Source: Arcobacter sp.
Lineage (GTDB): Bacteria; Campylobacterota; Campylobacteria; Campylobacterales; Arcobacteraceae
Assembly: GCA_965662175.1 (NCBI GenBank)
Contig: CBFIGT010000061.1
Span: 1 to 13,911, forward strand
Length of the DNA: 13,911 bases
Direction of reading: 5' to 3'
Of the stretch, positions 2,377 through 11,283 are shown piece after piece. Each line of letters starts with the position of its first letter. Positions within the stretch are counted from its first letter, which is position 1. A program made the translations under genes and the position numbers. The notes under the pieces are model-generated. The model was given only the letters and a program-made list of their open reading frames with translations. It ran no database searches and was not told where the DNA came from.

Positions 2377-2470
2377 TCTAAGGATTTATAATTATTTGAT
2401 ATAAGTAAAATTAGTTTTATTTATTATATTTGATTTTCCATTGCGTTTGAAATTGTTATTAATGCTGTTG

Positions 2471-2503
2471 TTGCACAAAATGAGATTACTAATCTCTTTG
2501 CAA
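2471..2503 (-). terminator. Possible imperfect hairpin terminator downstream of the flavoprotein gene
   Basis: TTGCA...GAGATT-act-AATCTC...TGCAA about 45 nt after the stop codon. It lacks a clean U-tract. Confidence 0.3.
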
Positions 2504-2546
2504 TATTTAAATTTTTTTTCATTTTTTACCTTTGTTTTAATTTATT

Positions 2547-4289
2547 TTAACTATTCAAACTAGGCCAAGTTCCAAAAGGCTGTTTTTCTAACTTCATTTT
2601 TCCACTCTTACTTTTGTAAATATTTACCCAAACTTGCCAATTTTTATTATCAACATTAGGATAATCAACCCTATAATGACTACATCTACTCTCTTTTCTA
2701 TATAAAGAGGCTTTTAGTTTCATCTTTGCACTTATAATCATATTTGTTGTTTCATGGGCAAGTCTTAACTCATGCATATCTGATGCTTTTATATGGGGAA
2801 GATGTGTCTCTTCTAACTCTTCTACAAAAGCTAATGCTGCTTTTAACATACTCTCTTTTTTTATGTATAAAACAAAGTTTGGAATCATAATTCCTTGTAA
2901 AGTTTGAGTTATCCAAGCTGGAGAATAGCCAGCTCTTTTACTTAATGGTGCTAAAATCTCTTTTTTTACTTTTACTATTTTTTTATCTGATATTTTTGGC
3001 ATAGTAATTGTTTGAGAATATTTAGCAGCAGCCTCTCCTGCAATTGCCCCTTGAACAGCTGAACCTGCTAATGATGAGCCAATTTGAGTATAAATTCCCC
3101 CTGACATATGAGAACCTAAAGCATCACCTGCTGCATAAAGTCCTTTTATTGTAGATTCACAAAATTCATTTATAGGGACTAATCCCTCAGATTTATGAAT
3201 GGCTAATCCAGCACTTGAGCCACCAACAGGAGATGCACTCATACCTGGAGGTAAGCCCTCTTTATCAAAAGCATCACCTTTGGGTGGTCCATCTCTTCTT
3301 TCATCTTTAGAATTTCTTTGAAATTCAAGGGGAACAAATGGCCCACCCTCTATCTTAGAGCTTGCCATCATATGTGGTGGTCCCATTTTTACACTATTTC
3401 CACTTTTATAAGCCATATAATTTAAATCAACTCCTAAGTCATGATGAATTTCAACACTTGTAGTTGAAGGAACTCGTTCAAACATTCCATGCCAATTCCC
3501 AAAAGAGTCAGCTGAATTCTTTGCACTTCCTGGATGTCCGTCATTCCACTCTTTTCCTGTAATTTTTGCCCCAATATTATATGCCATAATAGAGCCATCA
3601 TGGGTTAAATCACAAATTGGAAAACCATTTGGTTTAAATCCCCCTGCACCTGTACATAAGATTACAGTTTTTGCTTTAAAGGTATAAATCTTTTCATCAT
3701 CCAAAGAGAATCCAGCAGCCCCTGCAATTTTACCATCCTCTTTTATCAAATGTGTAAGCATAACTCTTTCAAGTAGTGGTATATTTCGCTCATTTATTGC
3801 TTTCATAAAAGAGTCATAACATAATGCTTTGTCAAAAAAACCCCACTCTTTTAATTCATTGACTCTAGCTTTTGAATTTTGTGCTAATTGTCTTGTATAT
3901 ACTTTATTATTTGTTCCTAAAGATGAGTTTGAAACTTTTTCAACAAACTCATCAATACTTAGCTCCTCTTTTTTTTCATCAAAAGAAAAAACACCTTTTG
4001 CAAAAGGAGTTTGTCCTGATGTTCCAACTCTACCTTTTGAAACTAACATTACTTTTGCACCTGCATCATGAGCTTTTACAGTTGCAAAAACTCCTGCCAT
4101 TCCTCCACCTACAACTAAAACATCAACTTCATTTTCAGTTTTTCTTATATTTTTTTTATCAACTTTTACTATATTTTCAGCCCAAGCAGATGTTAAATTC
4201 ATAGAAGATAAAGCAGCTAGTCCTAAACCACTAGCTGAGATTTCTAAAAAACTTCTTCTTGATAATAAGTCATTACTATTTTCAATCAT
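2547..4289 (-). CDS. Tat-exported FAD-dependent oxidoreductase, SdhA/FrdA/AprA flavoprotein superfamily, substrate unknown
   Basis: Twin-arginine signal SRRSFL with hydrophobic stretch and AWA cleavage site. FAD motifs VLVVGGGMAG, ILCTGAGG, GLYAAGDA and C-terminal RKESRCSHYRVDYP. The ATG at 4289 is preferred to the GTG at 4298 because an AAGGTG SD precedes it and it lies 1 nt past the upstream stop. Confidence 0.88.
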   Translation of the reverse strand: MIENSNDLLSRRSFLEISASGLGLAALSSMNLTSAWAENIVKVDKKNIRKTENEVDVLVVGGGMAGVFATVKAHDAGAKVMLVSKGRVGTSGQTPFAKGVFSFDEKKEELSIDEFVEKVSNSSLGTNNKVYTRQLAQNSKARVNELKEWGFFDKALCYDSFMKAINERNIPLLERVMLTHLIKEDGKIAGAAGFSLDDEKIYTFKAKTVILCTGAGGFKPNGFPICDLTHDGSIMAYNIGAKITGKEWNDGHPGSAKNSADSFGNWHGMFERVPSTTSVEIHHDLGVDLNYMAYKSGNSVKMGPPHMMASSKIEGGPFVPLEFQRNSKDERRDGPPKGDAFDKEGLPPGMSASPVGGSSAGLAIHKSEGLVPINEFCESTIKGLYAAGDALGSHMSGGIYTQIGSSLAGSAVQGAIAGEAAAKYSQTITMPKISDKKIVKVKKEILAPLSKRAGYSPAWITQTLQGIMIPNFVLYIKKESMLKAALAFVEELEETHLPHIKASDMHELRLAHETTNMIISAKMKLKASLYRKESRCSHYRVDYPNVDNKNWQVWVNIYKSKSGKMKLEKQPFGTWPSLNS

Positions 4290-4290
4290 T

Positions 4291-4923
4291 TTAAGCACCT
4301 TTTATAGTTTTATTAAAAAAATAGTTTTTAAGTAAAAGTATTGAAGCTAGTAAAATAAGTACAATAATTAAACTTATCATAGAAGTACTCATATGCCTTC
4401 CCATCTCAATTGTATGCCATGCAGCAAACAAAATAAAAATTAAAGATAACACTCCATGAAATATCTTCCACGCTTTATAACTTATTTTTAATTTATTTCG
4501 AAACATTGATGTAAGTCCTAAAACTAAGATTAAAATCCATGCAAATACTCCTAAAAATATCCCCAACTTATCAAAACTTGTTATCATTAGTATAAAACTA
4601 TCAAAAGGGTTAGGGCCAACTTCAAAAAATCTTGGAACAACTATTAAAAAAGGGTGAATTAAAAGAATTGGTAAAATCGTATATCCAAAGATTTTATGTA
4701 TCTTTATTACCTTAAAACTTTTAAAGGTTTTTATTAAATCATCATTTAATCTAGATAAATAGAATTGAGCTATCATTATAAAAAAAGCTAATATTGTAAC
4801 TATTGATATAAACTCTTTTAAACTATCTCTTTTTGGAAAATCCCCTAAAATAAATAGTAGTAGTGGTAAAGCTATAAAAAGTAAGCTTCCTAAAAAAATA
4901 TATATTGATTTGCTATTTATCAT
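4291..4923 (-). CDS. Ferric reductase-like transmembrane di-heme cytochrome b (MsrQ/FRD-type membrane domain, no FAD/NAD domain)
   Basis: About 6 hydrophobic helices and two H-x13-H pairs (IHKIFGYTILPILLIHP; FHGVLSLIFILFAAWHT), plus the typical SYKAWKIFH motif. The start is probably the ATG at 4923, just after the ferredoxin stop; the ORF track uses 4935. Confidence 0.8.
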   Translation of the reverse strand: MINSKSIYIFLGSLLFIALPLLLFILGDFPKRDSLKEFISIVTILAFFIMIAQFYLSRLNDDLIKTFKSFKVIKIHKIFGYTILPILLIHPFLIVVPRFFEVGPNPFDSFILMITSFDKLGIFLGVFAWILILVLGLTSMFRNKLKISYKAWKIFHGVLSLIFILFAAWHTIEMGRHMSTSMISLIIVLILLASILLLKNYFFNKTIKGA

Positions 4924-4925
4924 TA

Positions 4926-5141
4926 TCAACCCCATGATACTATTACAGGAATAGATTTTTCAGGAGTTATTGTTATTGCATCTACGGGACAATAAAGTCT
5001 GCATAAATGACAAATTTGACAATCTTCAACATATTTTATTATTGCTTTATCTGTTTTTTTATCCATACGAATTACATCAGTTGGACAAACTTTAACACAT
5101 GTTTCACAACCAATACATCCGCTTATATCAAAGATTGCCAT
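4926..5141 (-). CDS. 2x[4Fe-4S] dicluster ferredoxin (AprB/AsfB-like)
   Basis: CIGCETCVKVCP and CQICHLCRLYCP motifs. GGAG SD at 5150-5147. No signal peptide. Confidence 0.92.
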   Translation of the reverse strand: MAIFDISGCIGCETCVKVCPTDVIRMDKKTDKAIIKYVEDCQICHLCRLYCPVDAITITPEKSIPVIVSWG

Positions 5142-5146
5142 TTTAA

Positions 5147-5179
5147 CTCCATAATTTGTTTATATGGAAGTTTATAACA
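5147..5179 (-). promoter_or_regulatory. Putative extended -10 promoter (TGtTATAAA) and RBS of the ferredoxin-cytochrome b-flavoprotein operon
   Basis: The minus strand reads TGTTATAAA at 5179-5171, about 30 nt upstream of the ATG and downstream of the mrp terminator. Confidence 0.45.
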
Positions 5180-5229
5180 GTGATTTAAATAAAAAATTAA
5201 TTGTAAGTAAACAGGAGTAAATGAAGTAG

Positions 5230-5263
5230 TTAAAAGCTAATAATTTATATTATTAGCTTTTAA
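5230..5263 (-). terminator. Intrinsic terminator-like hairpin after mrp
   Basis: Perfect 15-bp inverted repeat TTAAAAGCTAATAAT (5230-5244) / ATTATTAGCTTTTAA (5249-5263), 10 nt after the mrp stop. Confidence 0.7.
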
Positions 5264-5273
5264 AAAGTTTAGA

Positions 5274-6392
5274 TTATTTAGCAGTTGAACAAGCACTAAC
5301 ACCTGGAGGTGTTGTTGGTTGGATAGATGCATTTTCTACTTTATCACTTACCTCATCAATAAAGGCTAAAAGTTTTTCAGTTGCTTGCATATATCTTTTT
5401 GCTGAAACTGATTCAGGTTGGAAATAAACAATAGGTTTACCTGCATCTCCACCCTCTCTAATAGCAGGTTCAATTGGTAAGTTTCCTAATACTTGAGTTC
5501 CATACTCTTTTGCTAAAGCTTCACAAGTTCCCATTCCAAAAATATCTGATTCTGTATTACATGTTGGACAGATAAATCCACTCATGTTTTCAACAATTCC
5601 ACCAATTGGAATATGAAGTTTTGCAAACATATCAAGTGATCTTCTTGAATCATCAAGGGCTACATGTTGAGGAGTTGTAACATTTACACCACAAGTTACA
5701 GGTACACTTTGAGCTAAAGTAAGCTGAGCATCACCTGTTCCTGGAGGCATATCAATAAATAGAATATCTAACTCTTCCCATAAAATATCTCTTAATAGTT
5801 GTTGAATGGCTTTCATAATCATAGCCCCTCTCCAAATAAGAGCTTGACCCTCTTCCATTAATGAACCCATTGACATAACATCAACACCATAGGCATTAAA
5901 TGGTTTTGCTTTATTTCCCACAACTTCAACTTGTTTTCCATTTAAACCCATCATACGAGGAATATTTGGTCCATAAATATCAGCATCTAAAATACCTACT
6001 TTTTTACCTTGCATTGCAGCTGCAACTGCTAAGTTTACAGTTGTAGTTGATTTTCCAACTCCACCTTTTCCTGAGCTTACCATTACAAAGTTTTTGATTT
6101 GTGGTGCTATGTTTTTTCCACCTGTTGCACTATTACTTGTTTGTTTTGGTGCAGCTGGTTTTTTAATTTCAATTCCAACATTAGCTATTCCAATTGCTCC
6201 TAATACAGAAGTGATGTTTTTTCTTAATTCAGCTTCAACCTCAGGTGCACTTGATGTTATATCAACAACAACTAAACATGCTCCATCTTTAACTTCCACA
6301 TTTTTTACAAATCCAAACTCTACAATTGATTTTGTAAAACCAGGATAGATAACCTTTTCTAACTCTTTATTTATATCAGCTACATTTGCCAT
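5274..6392 (-). CDS. mrp: Mrp/ApbC (NBP35 family) Fe-S cluster carrier ATPase
   Basis: SGKGGVGKSTT deviant Walker A, DADIYGPNIP, DMPPGTGD, ENMSGFICPTC (CxxC) and an N-terminal DUF59-like domain. AAGGA SD at 6403-6399. Confidence 0.96.
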   Translation of the reverse strand: MANVADINKELEKVIYPGFTKSIVEFGFVKNVEVKDGACLVVVDITSSAPEVEAELRKNITSVLGAIGIANVGIEIKKPAAPKQTSNSATGGKNIAPQIKNFVMVSSGKGGVGKSTTTVNLAVAAAMQGKKVGILDADIYGPNIPRMMGLNGKQVEVVGNKAKPFNAYGVDVMSMGSLMEEGQALIWRGAMIMKAIQQLLRDILWEELDILFIDMPPGTGDAQLTLAQSVPVTCGVNVTTPQHVALDDSRRSLDMFAKLHIPIGGIVENMSGFICPTCNTESDIFGMGTCEALAKEYGTQVLGNLPIEPAIREGGDAGKPIVYFQPESVSAKRYMQATEKLLAFIDEVSDKVENASIQPTTPPGVSACSTAK

Positions 6393-8005: not shown

Positions 8006-10456
8006 ATGACTAAAGAATTCGCAAACTCAAACTTTTCCCTTACAACAAAAGAAGAATTTTCTAATCTTGAAGATAGTGAAATTGTAAAAGTTATAAAAAA
8101 ATATAATGTTATCAATAATGAGGATAAATTACTTGATTCAAGTGAGAACAATTACCTATCTTTAATCAATTATATTGATAATCTTTATTATAAAAAACAA
8201 GATATTCCAGAAGATTTAAAAAATATAATTCAAAATCATATATATTTTAATAAGTACTTAGTTCAATATATTGATAAGAAAATTGAGTTTCTTTTAAAAA
8301 ATGGTTCAGCTATATTTTTTAAAGAGATAATTTCAATAATTAACTTACTCTCAGATGGAAATAATTATAAAATATTTGAAAATTATAATACATATAATTA
8401 TGAACAAATTAAAGAGTTGTTTAGAAATTATGAAAAAAACTTAAGCAATATAAATGAAGATAATGAAGAGTTTTTTGATGCAAAATTTAATTGTTATACC
8501 TCCCTTTTAAAAGTTTATACAAAACTTTGTTTAATAAACTCTATTGATATAAAAAGAAAACAAACAATAACTCCAATAATTGAGATTTTGACAGAAACTA
8601 TAAATATACTTAAGTTTACTACTAAATTAAAAGAACACAATTTAAAAAAACTAAATAATACCCTTGGGCAGTTGCTATATTATTTTTCCCATTTACCTTT
8701 TATAAACTCAAATGGAAAGGATTTAAACTATTTAATTGATGAGTATTATTTACTCTTTGAAAAAATCAGTGATGGATATAGCACTTCAAAAGATATGGAT
8801 TTTGCTGGTAATAGTAACTTAAAAGATGAAGAGTATTTGAGATTTAGAAACAACTCCTCTTATTTGCTTTTGATTATGTTAAAAAAGCTTTATGAGAACT
8901 TTGACAAAAATGAGTATTTTATTTGTAACTCTTTTAAAAAATGTATGCTTTTATATGAAAAAAACTTTAATGTTTCATTTATAAAAGATGAAAAAATTAC
9001 TCTTGAATCTTTTAGAAATGATTTATTAAACTCTTTAGCCCTGACTTATGAAACGCAAAATCATAAAATAGGTGAGATAAAAGAGTATAAAAAGGCTATT
9101 AGTGATTTTATTTTAGAGTCTGATAATTTTGATATTCATAACTTAGAAACAATTCATGATATTTTACTTTTAGCTGAGATGATTGAGGATTATACTCATA
9201 TTAATATTGGTGAAACACTAATTAATTCACCACTTATAAAAAATGATTATTATGAGTTTTATAAACTTAAAACACTTGATATTATCCTAAATCATTTGAC
9301 TAAAAATAGTCCAAAAGATTCCCACAAAGCTTTTGTTAAAAATATCTACAAATATATAGAAAAGTACAAAGTAGCTTCACATTTGATGCCTATGTTCTCA
9401 AAACTATATTTAAGTATTGCACTTTTTTACTCAAAATTAGGTGATAATGAGTCTATTCAAGAGGCTAGAGATATTTATGCAATGTTTATAAATATTAATG
9501 GATATGAACTACTTAAAAATGAGTATAAATATATTGACCAAAATCTATTAAAAGAGTTTGGGAAGTTTCATTTAGTTGAACTTAATTTTGATGAAAAAGA
9601 GATGAGTAATAGTGAGCTAATAAAATTAGGTAAAATTGGAACTAAAAATTATTTAAAATATAAAGAATTAAAAATAAAATACCAAATAAATAAAGATTTA
9701 ACAAAAATCACAAATGATATTTTAAATATAGACAATTTGGATTATGAAAAACTAAATAATGAGATTTGCTCACTATTAACAGAACAAATCTTTTATGGAA
9801 TCGCTGAAATATCTATTCTTGGATTAACAAGGAAAAACTCTTTGATTGTTGATGAGGGTTATAAAAAACATTTAATAGAGATTAATGAAAACTACACTAT
9901 TCAGTTTATTTTTCCTGCTGTTTATGAAGATAACTTTAGATATATTTTAAATGAAAACAAAGAGTTTATTGTAAAAAATTTAAAAAATATACTTTCAAGC
10001 TACAAAAAAGAGAGTATTACTTTTATTAACAATACAACAGGTTTAGAAAATATTCACAAGCTTCTTTTAGATTTAAAATCTCTTGAGGGTAAAAATATTG
10101 TATTTTTGCAAATTTTTCTAAAATCTCTATCTACTATAAATATGCAGTATGGATTTAAAGTTGGAGAAAAATATTTAAACACTATTATTAGAAAACTTTC
10201 TACTATAATAAGTGATGATGATATTTTATACTACTTAAATGATGGGAAAATTGGCTTATACTTAGATAACAAGGATAAGGTTAACACAATTACAGATAAA
10301 ATATTTAAATTTAAACTTCATAAAAATGGTGAAGAATTGGATATTGATTTTGTAATTAGCGTAACAATAAGCAAAAATAATGTTTATATTAAATCATTGG
10401 ATACCTTGGATAAGGCAATAATAAGTAAAAATAATCTATTATTTTATGAACAATAG
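8006..10456 (+). CDS. Large soluble, probably helical protein with a C-terminal degenerate GGDEF-like domain
   Basis: The C-terminal ~145 aa show GGDEF landmarks: NNTTGLEN (D-x-LTGLxN), INMQYGFKVGEKYL (IND-x-YGH-xx-GD-xx-L) and YYLNDGKIGL in place of R-x-GGDEF. The N-terminal ~600 aa have no motif I recognise and no clear TM segment. Confidence 0.7.
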   Translation: MTKEFANSNFSLTTKEEFSNLEDSEIVKVIKKYNVINNEDKLLDSSENNYLSLINYIDNLYYKKQDIPEDLKNIIQNHIYFNKYLVQYIDKKIEFLLKNGSAIFFKEIISIINLLSDGNNYKIFENYNTYNYEQIKELFRNYEKNLSNINEDNEEFFDAKFNCYTSLLKVYTKLCLINSIDIKRKQTITPIIEILTETINILKFTTKLKEHNLKKLNNTLGQLLYYFSHLPFINSNGKDLNYLIDEYYLLFEKISDGYSTSKDMDFAGNSNLKDEEYLRFRNNSSYLLLIMLKKLYENFDKNEYFICNSFKKCMLLYEKNFNVSFIKDEKITLESFRNDLLNSLALTYETQNHKIGEIKEYKKAISDFILESDNFDIHNLETIHDILLLAEMIEDYTHINIGETLINSPLIKNDYYEFYKLKTLDIILNHLTKNSPKDSHKAFVKNIYKYIEKYKVASHLMPMFSKLYLSIALFYSKLGDNESIQEARDIYAMFININGYELLKNEYKYIDQNLLKEFGKFHLVELNFDEKEMSNSELIKLGKIGTKNYLKYKELKIKYQINKDLTKITNDILNIDNLDYEKLNNEICSLLTEQIFYGIAEISILGLTRKNSLIVDEGYKKHLIEINENYTIQFIFPAVYEDNFRYILNENKEFIVKNLKNILSSYKKESITFINNTTGLENIHKLLLDLKSLEGKNIVFLQIFLKSLSTINMQYGFKVGEKYLNTIIRKLSTIISDDDILYYLNDGKIGLYLDNKDKVNTITDKIFKFKLHKNGEELDIDFVISVTISKNNVYIKSLDTLDKAIISKNNLLFYEQ

Positions 10457-10464
10457 GGAAATAA

Positions 10465-11283
10465 ATGAAAAATGATATTATAGAAAAAATTGAATCTTTA
10501 CCACCATTACCAAATAGTGTTATTGAATTAGAAAATTTTAGAAGAAGTCCTGATAAAGAGCCATTGGAGCTTTTAAAGATTATTGAACAAGATCCTTTAA
10601 TTATTACTACTCTTTTAAGGGTTGCCAACTCTGCTATGTTTGGATTTAGAAGTGAAGTTGAAACTCCAAGTCGTGCGGTTAATTTATTAGGTATTAATTT
10701 TACAATTTCTATTGCTTTAGGAAGTGTTGTTCAAGATTTAATTAAAACTAACCTTTCACCTTATGGTATATCAACTGATGATTTTCTTATGACATCAAAT
10801 CTAGCTTCAACAATTATAAATAATTGGGTTGGAGATATTGATTTTGGTCTAAAAGAAGAGCTTCTTTTACCTGCATTCTTACAAGAAACAGGTAAGTTTA
10901 TTATCTCTGAATTAATACAAGAACAAGATAAAGTTGAAGAGTTTAAAAAAGCACTATTAACAGACAAACCACTTTCTGAAATAGAAGAGAGTTTTACAGG
11001 TTTTTCTTGTGCAAGAATTACTGCTAATATTTTCAAACATTGGAATCTAAGCCATAATCTAATTTTTACTATTGGTTTTGTAGGAAACTTAGAACAATGT
11101 CCTCAAGAATACAAAAGAAGAGTTAAAATTTTAGAAGTTATAAAAGTTTTATGTGACATTAGAGAACCTTTATCTGATCACAATATTACACGTGCTTTAG
11201 AACTTGCAAATAAGCATGGGCTTGAAGTTGAATCTCTAATTAGTACTATTGATAAAATTAGAGCAAAAATGGATGAAGAGTAG
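10465..11283 (+). CDS. Stand-alone HDOD domain protein
   Basis: LPPLP, IEQDPLI...LLRVANSAMFGF, AVNLLG, AFLQETGK and IFKHWNL. AGGGA SD, 8 nt after the upstream stop. Confidence 0.9.
   Translation: MKNDIIEKIESLPPLPNSVIELENFRRSPDKEPLELLKIIEQDPLIITTLLRVANSAMFGFRSEVETPSRAVNLLGINFTISIALGSVVQDLIKTNLSPYGISTDDFLMTSNLASTIINNWVGDIDFGLKEELLLPAFLQETGKFIISELIQEQDKVEEFKKALLTDKPLSEIEESFTGFSCARITANIFKHWNLSHNLIFTIGFVGNLEQCPQEYKRRVKILEVIKVLCDIREPLSDHNITRALELANKHGLEVESLISTIDKIRAKMDEE

Follow-up and report, generated by a model that had tools for sequence, protein, structure and literature searches.

The window, i.e., the whole 13,911-nt stretch of DNA that was analysed, carries three intact genes for a ferredoxin (fdx), a ferric-reductase-domain (FRD) membrane protein and a flavoprotein, which lie among the following features:

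2413..5273, minus strand: inserted segment of ~2.9 kb with the entire module, lacking in five same-genus genomes
2424..2522, minus strand: 32-aa ORF, signal-peptide remnant of a small Cys-rich secreted protein (match to a protein of the related locus L001)
2547..4289, minus strand: 580-aa flavoprotein (FAD), FrdA/SdhA/AprA superfamily, Tat signal at the N-terminus (Pfam, profile, model)
nt 4289-4179, minus strand: Tat signal, flavoprotein residues 1-37 (SRRSFLE motif)
4291..4923, minus strand: 210-aa six-helix FRD membrane protein, predicted di-haem b (PF01794, invariant His)
4926..5141, minus strand: 71-aa 2x[4Fe-4S] ferredoxin, no signal peptide (motifs, Pfam Fer4 1.7e-11)
5147-5150, minus strand: GGAG ribosome site (sequence)
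5171..5176, minus strand: -10-like TATAAA, aligning with TATAAT of related promoters (alignment A4)
5205..5221, minus strand: direct-repeat operator TTTACTCCTGTTTACTT, predicted OmpR-family response-regulator site (exact match, conserved position)
5230..5263, minus strand: hairpin between mrp and the operon (15-bp stem, -14.2 kcal/mol)

The sequence and its ORFs agree with the tight, co-oriented packing that an earlier note on this DNA had described: all three genes lie on the minus strand, separated by 2 nt (TA) between fdx and the membrane gene and by 1 nt (A) between the membrane gene and the flavoprotein gene. The starts chosen are those with homologue support; an in-frame ATG at 4935 (membrane gene) and a GTG at 4298 (flavoprotein gene) are the alternatives. 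The insertion separates mrp from the gene of a Cys/Met PLP enzyme. In five of five congeners these two are neighbours, and thiC, mrp and the PLP gene are contiguous, with ~146 nt separating mrp from the PLP gene. Homology to the congeners' intergenic region ends directly past the mrp stop codon and is back at ACTTATATCAAAT, at about window position 2412. The hairpin said to separate the trio from mrp is well beyond chance (z = -6.4; 0/200 shuffles fold as well) and differs from the one that congeners have at the same place. Additionally, the 32-aa ORF is 52% identical (E = 4e-9) to residues 1-31 of an 89-aa protein (L001:8532-8801). In related loci the gene for this small Cys-rich secreted protein comes after the flavoprotein gene; the mature part of the protein is absent at this locus, where a stop follows residue 32.

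The ferredoxin has the two CxxCxxCxxxCP motifs expected from the first inspection (C9-x2-C12-x2-C15-x3-C19-P and C41-x2-C44-x2-C47-x3-C51-P) and, likewise as expected, lacks an N-terminal signal. All eight Cys are invariant (30/30 aligned sequences), and every one of 60 distinct homologues is 71 aa long, with a median identity of 77%. Its sequence is that of a generic dicluster ferredoxin, most similar in the PDB to polyferredoxin modules rather than to AprB; against the aprB model TIGR02060 it reaches 29.3 bits (cut-off 135.65). Its residues 1-58 align end to end with 8a8o_C, from a PAPS reductase.

The membrane protein, whose predicted topology comes from visual inspection of hydrophobic stretches and of loops rich in K/R, belongs to the FRD superfamily of NOX, STEAP and MsrQ (Pfam Ferric_reduct, PF01794, 40.9 bits, cut-off 28). 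The four His described earlier as two H-x13-H pairs are indeed H76/H90 and H156/H170, conserved at 0.99-1.0 in 68 aligned sequences, in which a fifth His, H177, is likewise invariant or 99% conserved; the two pairs, on two helices, are predicted to bind two b haems. At E <= 0.01 the NCBIfam MsrQ model gave no match to this protein, the only NCBIfam match being MamZ at 18 bits, and a Pfam search of the window returned no MsrP-like gene. MsrQ proper was ruled out, as both the equivalog match and an adjacent MsrP molybdoenzyme are lacking.

The Tat signal proposed for the flavoprotein is borne out by an S-R-R-S-F-L-E motif followed by a hydrophobic stretch and AWA, that is, the motif, hydrophobic region and AxA site of a Tat substrate, from which export itself is predicted. 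R11, R12 and F14 are invariant in 32/32 sequences, and this genome has a fragment of TatC at the edge of a contig. A structure model of the flavoprotein with a pLDDT of 88.8 (an earlier one from the shallow alignment A1, pLDDT 51, was set aside) finds PAPS reductase alpha, AprA and FrdA as its best folds in Foldseek, with a probability of 1.00 to 8a8o, 2fja, 6b58 and 7d6x and TM of 0.66-0.70.

Both FAD_binding_2 (PF00890, 4e-22) and Succ_DH_flav_C (PF02910, 2e-13) match the flavoprotein, placing it in the FrdA/SdhA/AprA/NadB superfamily, and JGI pipelines label its homologues 'succinate dehydrogenase/fumarate reductase flavoprotein subunit'. These matches speak for an ordinary quinol:fumarate reductase, Campylobacterota methylmenaquinol:fumarate reductase (MFR), APS reductase or L-aspartate oxidase, a reading that is nevertheless extremely improbable. 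All curated models stay far below their cut-offs: the highest-scoring one reaches 167 bits against 587, and others are NF005331 (125 against 557), TIGR01812 (118 against 567), aprA TIGR02061 (98.7 against 641.75), nadB (87 against 453), PRK09231 (77 against 854) and the MFR equivalog NF042982 (54.3 against 1100). In addition, a dicluster protein of 71 aa takes the place of a three-cluster B subunit, Gln93 occupies the position of the His of KAHTVMAEGG in 7d6v, which we take to be the flavin-binding His of SdhA (covalent FAD), and the genome has separate FrdA/SdhA-type paralogues on other contigs (C2 and C8). On these grounds all four readings were rejected. The suspicion that this combination is not a characterised enzyme is strengthened by the tree, in which the flavoprotein falls in its own tight clade (100% support) with a long stem (0.78) and short internal branches; the tree consists of unnamed representatives and, together with the curated HMM scores and PDB matches, replaces a phylogeny against named AprA, AsfA and MfrA.

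Some superfamily residues can be followed into the flavoprotein. E247...H252-P aligns with EFIQFHP of 7d6v and NQFHP of NadB, and H365 pairs with the His of AHYTCGG in NadB, where the alignment is weak. This His/Arg set is presumably dicarboxylate-binding in the relatives, whose capping domain presumably holds the proton-donor Arg; this domain does not align. None of the three proteins is claimed by a curated family model, RefSeq names for the trio go no further than "FAD-binding protein" and similar, and atlas and cluster look-ups returned generic names only.

The expected co-occurrence of the three genes holds in other genomes, the order ferredoxin, membrane protein, flavoprotein being found in 71 of 75 loci with enough upstream DNA (70/74 of those in plus orientation with no less than 900 nt of upstream DNA, and L013). 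None of the outcomes that the earlier note had named as refuting was observed. Many water and sediment bacteria keep this order, whereas the trio did not turn up in 400 further genomes of the same phylum. Among the best 120 homologues identity is at least 61%, and these span at least six phyla. Homologues number ~1550 in all. On a megaplasmid of Paracoccus seriniphilus the same trio lies beside a divergent two-component system. At three loci (L004, L042 and L071) fdx directly precedes the flavoprotein gene with no FRD gene between. In the first of these genomes the window's FRD protein finds no match, and the only PF01794 protein is a 445-aa ORF ~550 kb away; a TatC gene directly follows the flavoprotein gene, and three genes further comes a NapH-like one. 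The existence of three loci with fdx and the flavoprotein gene and without the membrane gene favours a ferredoxin-flavoprotein pair.

The same loci count against a NOX-like conduit, in which a cytoplasmic ferredoxin would feed the inner haem and electrons would cross the membrane by way of both haems and pass directly from haem to FAD in the exported flavoprotein. The classical entry point for electrons in FRD-family proteins is on the cytoplasmic side, the ferredoxin lacks a signal peptide, and the genes are arranged in the order of such a path (fdx, FRD, flavoprotein). K77, Y149 and W152, close to where the haem helices end on the cytoplasmic side, are also invariant. In line with this alternative, MsrQ-like clusters with cytoplasmic NuoF-like proteins are mentioned in excerpts of a published survey (PMC8238504). 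However, the loci lacking the FRD gene keep fdx tightly coupled to the flavoprotein, the close structural relatives of the flavoprotein all receive electrons through a bound Fe-S subunit, and the ferredoxin is more conserved across homologues than the membrane protein (69-93% vs roughly 40-63% identity), so that this conduit appears rather unlikely.

A reading with the opposite direction of electron flow was also considered. If the system were a periplasmic dehydrogenase, electrons would run from substrate to FAD, Fe-S, haem b and the quinone pool; sulfite, another reduced sulfur compound or an organic compound are candidate substrates for such a reaction. The superfamily works both ways, as in Sdh vs Frd and in AprAB of sulfur oxidisers, the carriers include the sulfur-cycling Sulfurimonas, Thiothrix, Desulfobacter and Desulfocapsaceae, and the closest solved relatives of the flavoprotein handle sulfite adducts. 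Nevertheless, the fermenters or heterotrophs Labilibaculum, Paracoccus and Vibrio are also carriers, and Asn74 of AprA, presumably catalytic, aligns with the invariant Phe101 in a single weak HMMER alignment. This reversal is considered quite unlikely.

The genes around the trio elsewhere suggest an envelope-stress-like setting: neighbours among 88 loci include response regulators (22), small secreted Cys proteins (21), histidine kinases (18) and Spy/CpxP-like proteins (13), as well as MacAB-type efflux, ECF sigma and MarR genes. Neither a two-component system nor stress genes adjoin the trio in this genome. Upstream of fdx lies the operator, TTTACT-N4-TTTACTT, with two TTTACT hexamers at a 10-nt period; the match is exact and the sole one in the window even when one mismatch is allowed. 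It is kept at the same place upstream of fdx in all seven Campylobacterota loci whose upstream DNA was inspected in addition to the window (L001, L002, L003, L013, L014, L015 and L016). The same operator precedes an orthologous OmpR-type response regulator-histidine kinase operon of this genome (on C48), whose products are 69% and 49% identical, respectively, to the pair adjoining the trio in L002. Additionally, this genome has an operator-like site, its period 11 nt, ahead of an EF-hand gene whose homologue adjoins the regulator-kinase pair in L002. Genome-wide, the strict operator occurs 5 times, and shuffles predict ~2.1; taken by itself the motif is therefore weak, and the case rests on its conserved position.

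A direct repeat beside the -10 region, common to the trio and to the regulator's own promoter, is the arrangement of an OmpR/PhoB-type regulon, and control of the trio by the OmpR-type regulator through this predicted site is thus suggested. Of the promoter that the earlier note had assigned to the trio, the conserved operator and -10 region stand, whereas the generic sigma-70 scan gave no above-chance signal (17 sites vs 16 expected) and is uninformative; the promoter is better described as a predicted response-regulator-dependent one. DccR of C. jejuni, a possible parallel, reportedly binds a TTCAC direct repeat, with a period unlike that of the operator here, and is said to control periplasmic and efflux genes. 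In three wastewater libraries labelled 'METAGENOMIC RNA-Seq' (possibly DNA), contigs cover the operon and its flanks alike.

Taken as a whole, the trio probably forms one extracytoplasmic redox enzyme, in which an exported flavo/Fe-S pair is docked on a two-haem membrane protein. The flavoprotein would be exported folded through Tat, probably carrying along the signal-less ferredoxin, and the pair would dock on the membrane protein, which could draw electrons either from membrane quinol or from a donor in the cytoplasm. Electrons may then pass from the haems to the Fe-S clusters, FAD and a periplasmic small molecule. The nearest solved relatives (8a8o and AprAB) consist of a flavoprotein and a small dicluster subunit, which speaks for the ferredoxin as the flavoprotein's partner. 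The data establish the genes with their motifs and kept order, the class of fold, the inserted segment and the operator common to the two-component system's promoter; export of both proteins, haem binding, quinol as donor, the path and direction of the electrons and control by the regulator are inferred, and the interpretation in the earlier note is supported in part. Points against this reading are the generic type of the ferredoxin, the debated donor of MsrQ-type proteins, the low genome-wide excess of the operator and, in this genome, the truncated Cys-rich neighbour and the lack of an adjoining two-component system or stress genes. As for its role, our best guess, held with low confidence, is a stress-inducible periplasmic reductase that may detoxify or respire a compound of sulfidic or organic-rich waters. 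The stress-regulon part of this guess draws on gene neighbourhood only, and the logic of the role is analogous to that of MsrPQ. A bolder reading, which we regard as speculative and doubtful, is that of a new extracytoplasmic class: a Tat-exported AprAB-like pair with a NOX/MsrQ-type wire. Such a module would spread across phyla as a cassette of 3 kb, bring along its own two-component switch and act on a compound outside the range of known periplasmic enzymes. A sulfur oxyanion handled through flavin-N5 chemistry and a toxic unsaturated acid are examples of such substrates.

Periplasmic reductases set which compounds bacteria can breathe or detoxify, and this family is highly conserved, mobile and nameless in public annotation. 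New here are the ~2.9-kb insertion, the negative search of the 400 genomes, the conserved operator common to the trio and the two-component system, the envelope-stress-like context and the loci without the membrane gene. With the operator and culturable carriers at hand (Poseidonibacter ostreae, Paracoccus seriniphilus, Vibrio ulleungensis and Labilibaculum species), the function of the trio becomes testable. Its substrate, once found, would extend the known redox chemistry of sediments and wastewater by one enzyme and provide a second worked example, after MsrPQ, of the role of a bacterial stand-alone ferric-reductase-domain protein. The three building blocks are known ones, in an arrangement for which no description was found in the literature text searched, including portions of PMC8238504 and PMC9449129.

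MfrABE and QFR/SQR have the flavoprotein superfamily in common with the trio. MfrA is Tat-exported and takes a signal-less Fe-S subunit along. However, MfrB/FrdB is a three-cluster subunit of ~240 aa, vs the two-cluster 71-aa protein of the trio, and the anchors of MfrABE/QFR are unrelated to the FRD family. The Tat-exported flavin reductases of gut bacteria and Shewanella are likewise extracytoplasmic members of the FrdA superfamily, with diverse small-molecule substrates. Such respiratory enzymes include urocanate, itaconate, cinnamate and methacrylate reductases (bioRxiv 10.1101/2022.12.26.521950; PMC8238504). In passages of PMC8238504, extracytosolic enzymes of this kind work together with cytochromes or with flavinylated FMN-binding domains, and the fumarate reductase of Shewanella has a multi-haem cytochrome c domain. 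The text searched contains no description of a ferredoxin plus FRD-type haem-b input module.

MsrPQ (YedYZ) of E. coli resembles the trio in combining a small FRD-family di-haem membrane protein with a Tat-exported periplasmic reductase and in being under OmpR-family two-component control, features that are predicted for the trio. In MsrPQ the two-component regulator is HprSR. The catalytic partner differs, being the molybdoenzyme MsrP in one case and a flavo/Fe-S pair in the other. The donor of MsrQ-type proteins is debated; extracts of one paper call MsrQ a flavohaemoprotein and report a ubiquinone cofactor (PMC12525009).

In both sequence and fold, the flavoprotein is closest to AprAB (1jnr/2fja) and the PAPS reductase of Methanothermococcus thermolithotrophicus (8a8o), with profile matches at E = 2e-31 and 3e-27 and Foldseek ranks 1-3 and 5 (TM ~0.67-0.69). 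Identity with AprAB itself was ruled out by aprA and aprB scores far under the cut-offs and by the Tat signal on the flavoprotein. The AprAB-like make-up pointed out earlier does hold, in the small dicluster partner and the non-covalent FAD position; like the trio, AprAB and the PAPS reductase each combine a flavoprotein and a small subunit with 2x[4Fe-4S], and an AprA-type C-terminal domain is common to them. In contrast to AprB, the ferredoxin has no tail, and the capping region of the flavoprotein (~residues 222-370) is unaligned with AprA. Finally, AprAB and the PAPS reductase are soluble enzymes of the cytoplasm whose substrate is nucleotide-activated sulfate, whereas the trio has a Tat signal and a predicted haem-b membrane partner.

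The minus-strand module of a ferredoxin (fdx), a ferric-reductase-domain (FRD) membrane protein and a flavoprotein is a real, intact and horizontally acquired operon, whose product is predicted from sequence to be an uncharacterised extracytoplasmic redox enzyme. The earlier note had described three tightly packed, co-oriented genes, and this arrangement holds, with stop-to-start gaps of 2 nt and then 1 nt:

Genes of the module
5141-4926, minus strand: ferredoxin, 71 aa, two CxxCxxCxxxCP motifs, without signal peptide; Pfam Fer4
4923-4291, minus strand: membrane protein, 210 aa; Pfam Ferric_reduct (40.9 bits vs cut-off 28)
4289-2547, minus strand: flavoprotein, 580 aa; Pfam FAD_binding_2 and Succ_DH_flav_C

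Alternative starts are an in-frame ATG at 4935 for the membrane gene and a GTG at 4298 for the flavoprotein, the homologues of which start at ATG. The other features claimed in that note were borne out as well: the ferredoxin has the two motifs and no signal; the flavoprotein N-terminus, MIENSNDLLSRRSFLEISASGLGLAALSSMNLTSAWA, carries a Tat motif whose R11, R12 and F14 are invariant in 32/32 aligned homologues; the membrane protein has four His in two H-x13-H pairs (H76/H90 and H156/H170; conservation 0.99-1.0 in 68 aligned sequences); and a 15-bp hairpin at 5230-5263 (z = -6.4) lies between the operon and mrp/apbC. A fifth His, H177, is invariant in the same 68 sequences and would lie in a periplasmic loop, according to a topology read by eye.

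Conserved three-gene synteny, which the earlier note had named as a check, was found in 70 of the 74 plus-oriented loci whose sequence reaches 900 nt or further upstream of the flavoprotein, where ferredoxin, membrane protein and flavoprotein are colinear, and the order is identical in L013 on the other strand. The 87 related loci compared came from species genomes (6), one relative and metagenomes (80); upstream DNA was too short to judge gene order in 12. In three loci (L004, L042 and L071) the ferredoxin gene adjoins the flavoprotein gene without a membrane gene, and L006, from Flavivirga jejuensis, holds a deletion remnant (5661-6063), in which the first 27 ferredoxin codons run almost straight into the last ~114 flavoprotein codons. 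The ferredoxin is 71 aa long in all 60 distinct sequences (identity 69-93%, median 77%). Flavoprotein homologues numbered 1550 at E <= 0.001 (7999 candidates scored); the best 120 of these are all at least 61% identical and include Sulfurimonas, Labilibaculum, Mangrovibacterium, Desulfobacter, Thiothrix, Calditrichaceae and Melioribacteraceae. The same trio is borne by a Paracoccus seriniphilus megaplasmid, where the RefSeq labels go no further than '4Fe-4S dicluster domain-containing protein', 'ferric reductase-like transmembrane domain-containing protein' and 'FAD-binding protein'.

The flavoprotein belongs to a distinct, unnamed subfamily of the FrdA/AprA superfamily, because every curated NCBIfam model scores it far under its cut-off (PRK08275, the best, 167 bits vs 587; TfrA 164 vs 718; AprA models 125 vs 557 and 99 vs 642; nadB 87 vs 453; MFR 54 vs 1100) and because the trio flavoproteins form one clade with 100% support, a stem of 0.78 and short internal branches. 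This separate placement comes from a tree of 105 unnamed representatives and two paralogues from the window's genome, in which Tat signals occur in several neighbouring clades and are absent from others. The nearest solved chains by sequence are AprA 1jnr (2e-31, family profile), mycobacterial SdhA 7d6v and the alpha subunit of 8a8o, an AprAB-like PAPS reductase. An initial structural model, its alignment shallow, was of poor quality (pLDDT 51); after 96 diverse representatives were added, the model reached pLDDT 88.8 and pTM 0.90, and Foldseek grouped 8a8o, 2fja/1jnr, FrdA and SdhA at TM 0.66-0.70. Gln93 aligns with the SdhA His of KAHTVMAEGG, E247...H252-P with EFxQFHP and, in a weak stretch, H365 with the presumed second catalytic His of NadB. 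The capping region (~222-370), which contains a variable Pro/Gly/Arg-rich insert, gave no alignment to any solved structure. In make-up, the subfamily is closest to AprAB.

The arrangement we consider probable is a Tat-exported periplasmic flavo/Fe-S heterodimer: the flavoprotein would be exported via its own Tat signal, the signal-less ferredoxin would hitch-hike through Tat with it, and the pair would be tethered to the di-haem membrane protein and receive electrons from it. Pairing of ferredoxin with flavoprotein is argued for by the loci that keep the two tightly coupled without a membrane gene, among them L004, which has a TatC gene adjoining the pair, a NapH-like gene nearby and no trio-type membrane protein found elsewhere in its genome; by the AprAB/PAPS-reductase precedent; and by the greater conservation of the ferredoxin. 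The ferredoxin is nevertheless of a generic kind in sequence, which counts against the pairing, and a NOX-like conduit with the ferredoxin staying cytoplasmic is the main rival, though an unlikely one given these couplings. Less likely still is the opposite electron flow, with the same subunits making up a dehydrogenase. Under the preferred reading, electrons would instead run from the membrane protein to the exported pair.

The flavoprotein is present in 1/60 relatives, in 0/7 same-genus genomes and in 0/400 other genomes sampled from the phylum (E <= 1e-100). In 5/5 congeners thiC, mrp and a Cys/Met PLP-enzyme gene lie side by side, mrp and the PLP-enzyme gene being ~146 nt apart. Since the window's homology to this spacer ends directly after the mrp stop codon and restarts at ~2412, the ~2.9 kb at 2413-5273 is an insertion. 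Its right end interrupts a gene: a 32-aa ORF (2522-2424, minus strand) resembles the signal peptide (52% identity, E = 4e-9) of a small Cys-rich secreted protein (motif PPxEAIxAC...GTC), the gene of which comes after that of the flavoprotein in L002, L014 and L003 and at a greater distance downstream in L001. The ORF is a truncated signal-peptide remnant, the mature part having been lost at the insertion edge. A metagenome contig differing in 8 letters spans mrp, spacer, ferredoxin, membrane gene and the 5' part of the flavoprotein; though an independent record, it may stem from the source sample. At the right edge, a sludge-metagenome contig (X1) stops at 2412, another (X14) at 2410, and a third (X5) has a loose end at 2425; these ends, weak evidence from contigs alone, may mean strains with another junction. 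The window's G+C is ~28% and lowest (0.21-0.24) at 8006-11283 (plus strand), where a protein of 816 aa, its C-terminal GGDEF domain a weak match (E = 3.9e-7), precedes an HDOD-domain protein.

Upstream of fdx, the window and all seven Campylobacterota loci compared (L001-L003, L013-L016; L013/L015 and L002/L014 are near-duplicate pairs) have a common layout: (C/T)ATTTACT-N4-TTTACTT, ATTAAAT, TATTTAAA and a TATAAT-like box. In L001-L003, L014 and L016 the stretch just upstream encodes an OmpR-type regulator and an ArsS-family kinase (NF038389, 414 bits vs cut-off 250); L013 ends too soon to reach any regulator gene. In the window's genome this pair sits away from the trio, on contig C48 (12720-14575; 69% and 49% identity to the L002 genes), preceded by the same operator motif and downstream boxes. 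Within C48:12580-15400, the stretch that includes operator and pair, a 321-aa polytopic membrane protein, probably YeiH/PSE-like, comes next. A comparable site, of 11-nt period, stands before an EF-hand protein gene on contig C30, whose product has a homologue beside the L002 two-component system and clusters with same-position genes of L003, L014, L016 and L027. In C30:13024-13992, which takes in this site, the protein is 298 aa, acidic and Ser-rich, with two EF-hand-like loops, and putative cytochrome bd genes (cydAB, read from translations) lie ~150 nt downstream. The strict motif occurs genome-wide 5 times vs ~2.1 expected; therefore, the operator argument rests on conserved position, not counts. 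The C48 kinase has no orthologue in the five congeners (best match 37% identical), and the EF-hand protein occurs in 2/5 of them; the switch and cassette thus look co-acquired.

Neighbourhoods over 88 loci include a response regulator (22), a kinase (18), the small secreted Cys protein (21), a Spy/CpxP-like protein (13; a related cluster in 4 loci matches PF13801 under cut-off) and Lcl_C lipoproteins (12). Recurrent too are CotH kinases with VTC, DUF4956 and DUF2490, EF-hand proteins, MacAB/HlyD/OEP efflux genes, and ECF sigma and MarR regulators. By association in gene neighbourhood, the surroundings resemble an envelope-stress regulon. At L071:2958-8750, ferredoxin, flavoprotein, a 70-aa ORF, VTC, CotH, DUF4956 and DUF2490 stand under an ECF sigma factor, the FRD gene being absent. 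Two unrelated families of small secreted neighbours, the Spy/CpxP-like and the small Cys proteins, both have Gly/Gln/Arg-rich mature starts ending GPPP (L084:4054-4458, L044:6229-6501 and other trio neighbours); the flavoprotein's variable insert is likewise Pro/Gly/Arg-rich, and CotH kinases are frequent neighbours. A common recognition or modification motif is possible.

Full-text literature searches turned up no account of the three-part architecture. In the available parts of Meheust et al. (2021; PMC8238504), MsrQ-like clusters appear in flavinylation contexts only, and extracytosolic fumarate-reductase-like enzymes are tied to FMN-binding or cytochrome domains; a 2023 preprint (bioRxiv 10.1101/2022.12.26.521950) deals with gut respiratory flavin reductases. 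The window contributes the cassette's insertion boundaries and an operator that the trio has in common with its cognate two-component system; variants lacking the FRD gene bear on subunit pairing. The trio joins two known kinds of system, FrdA/AprA flavoenzymes and MsrQ-type electron input.
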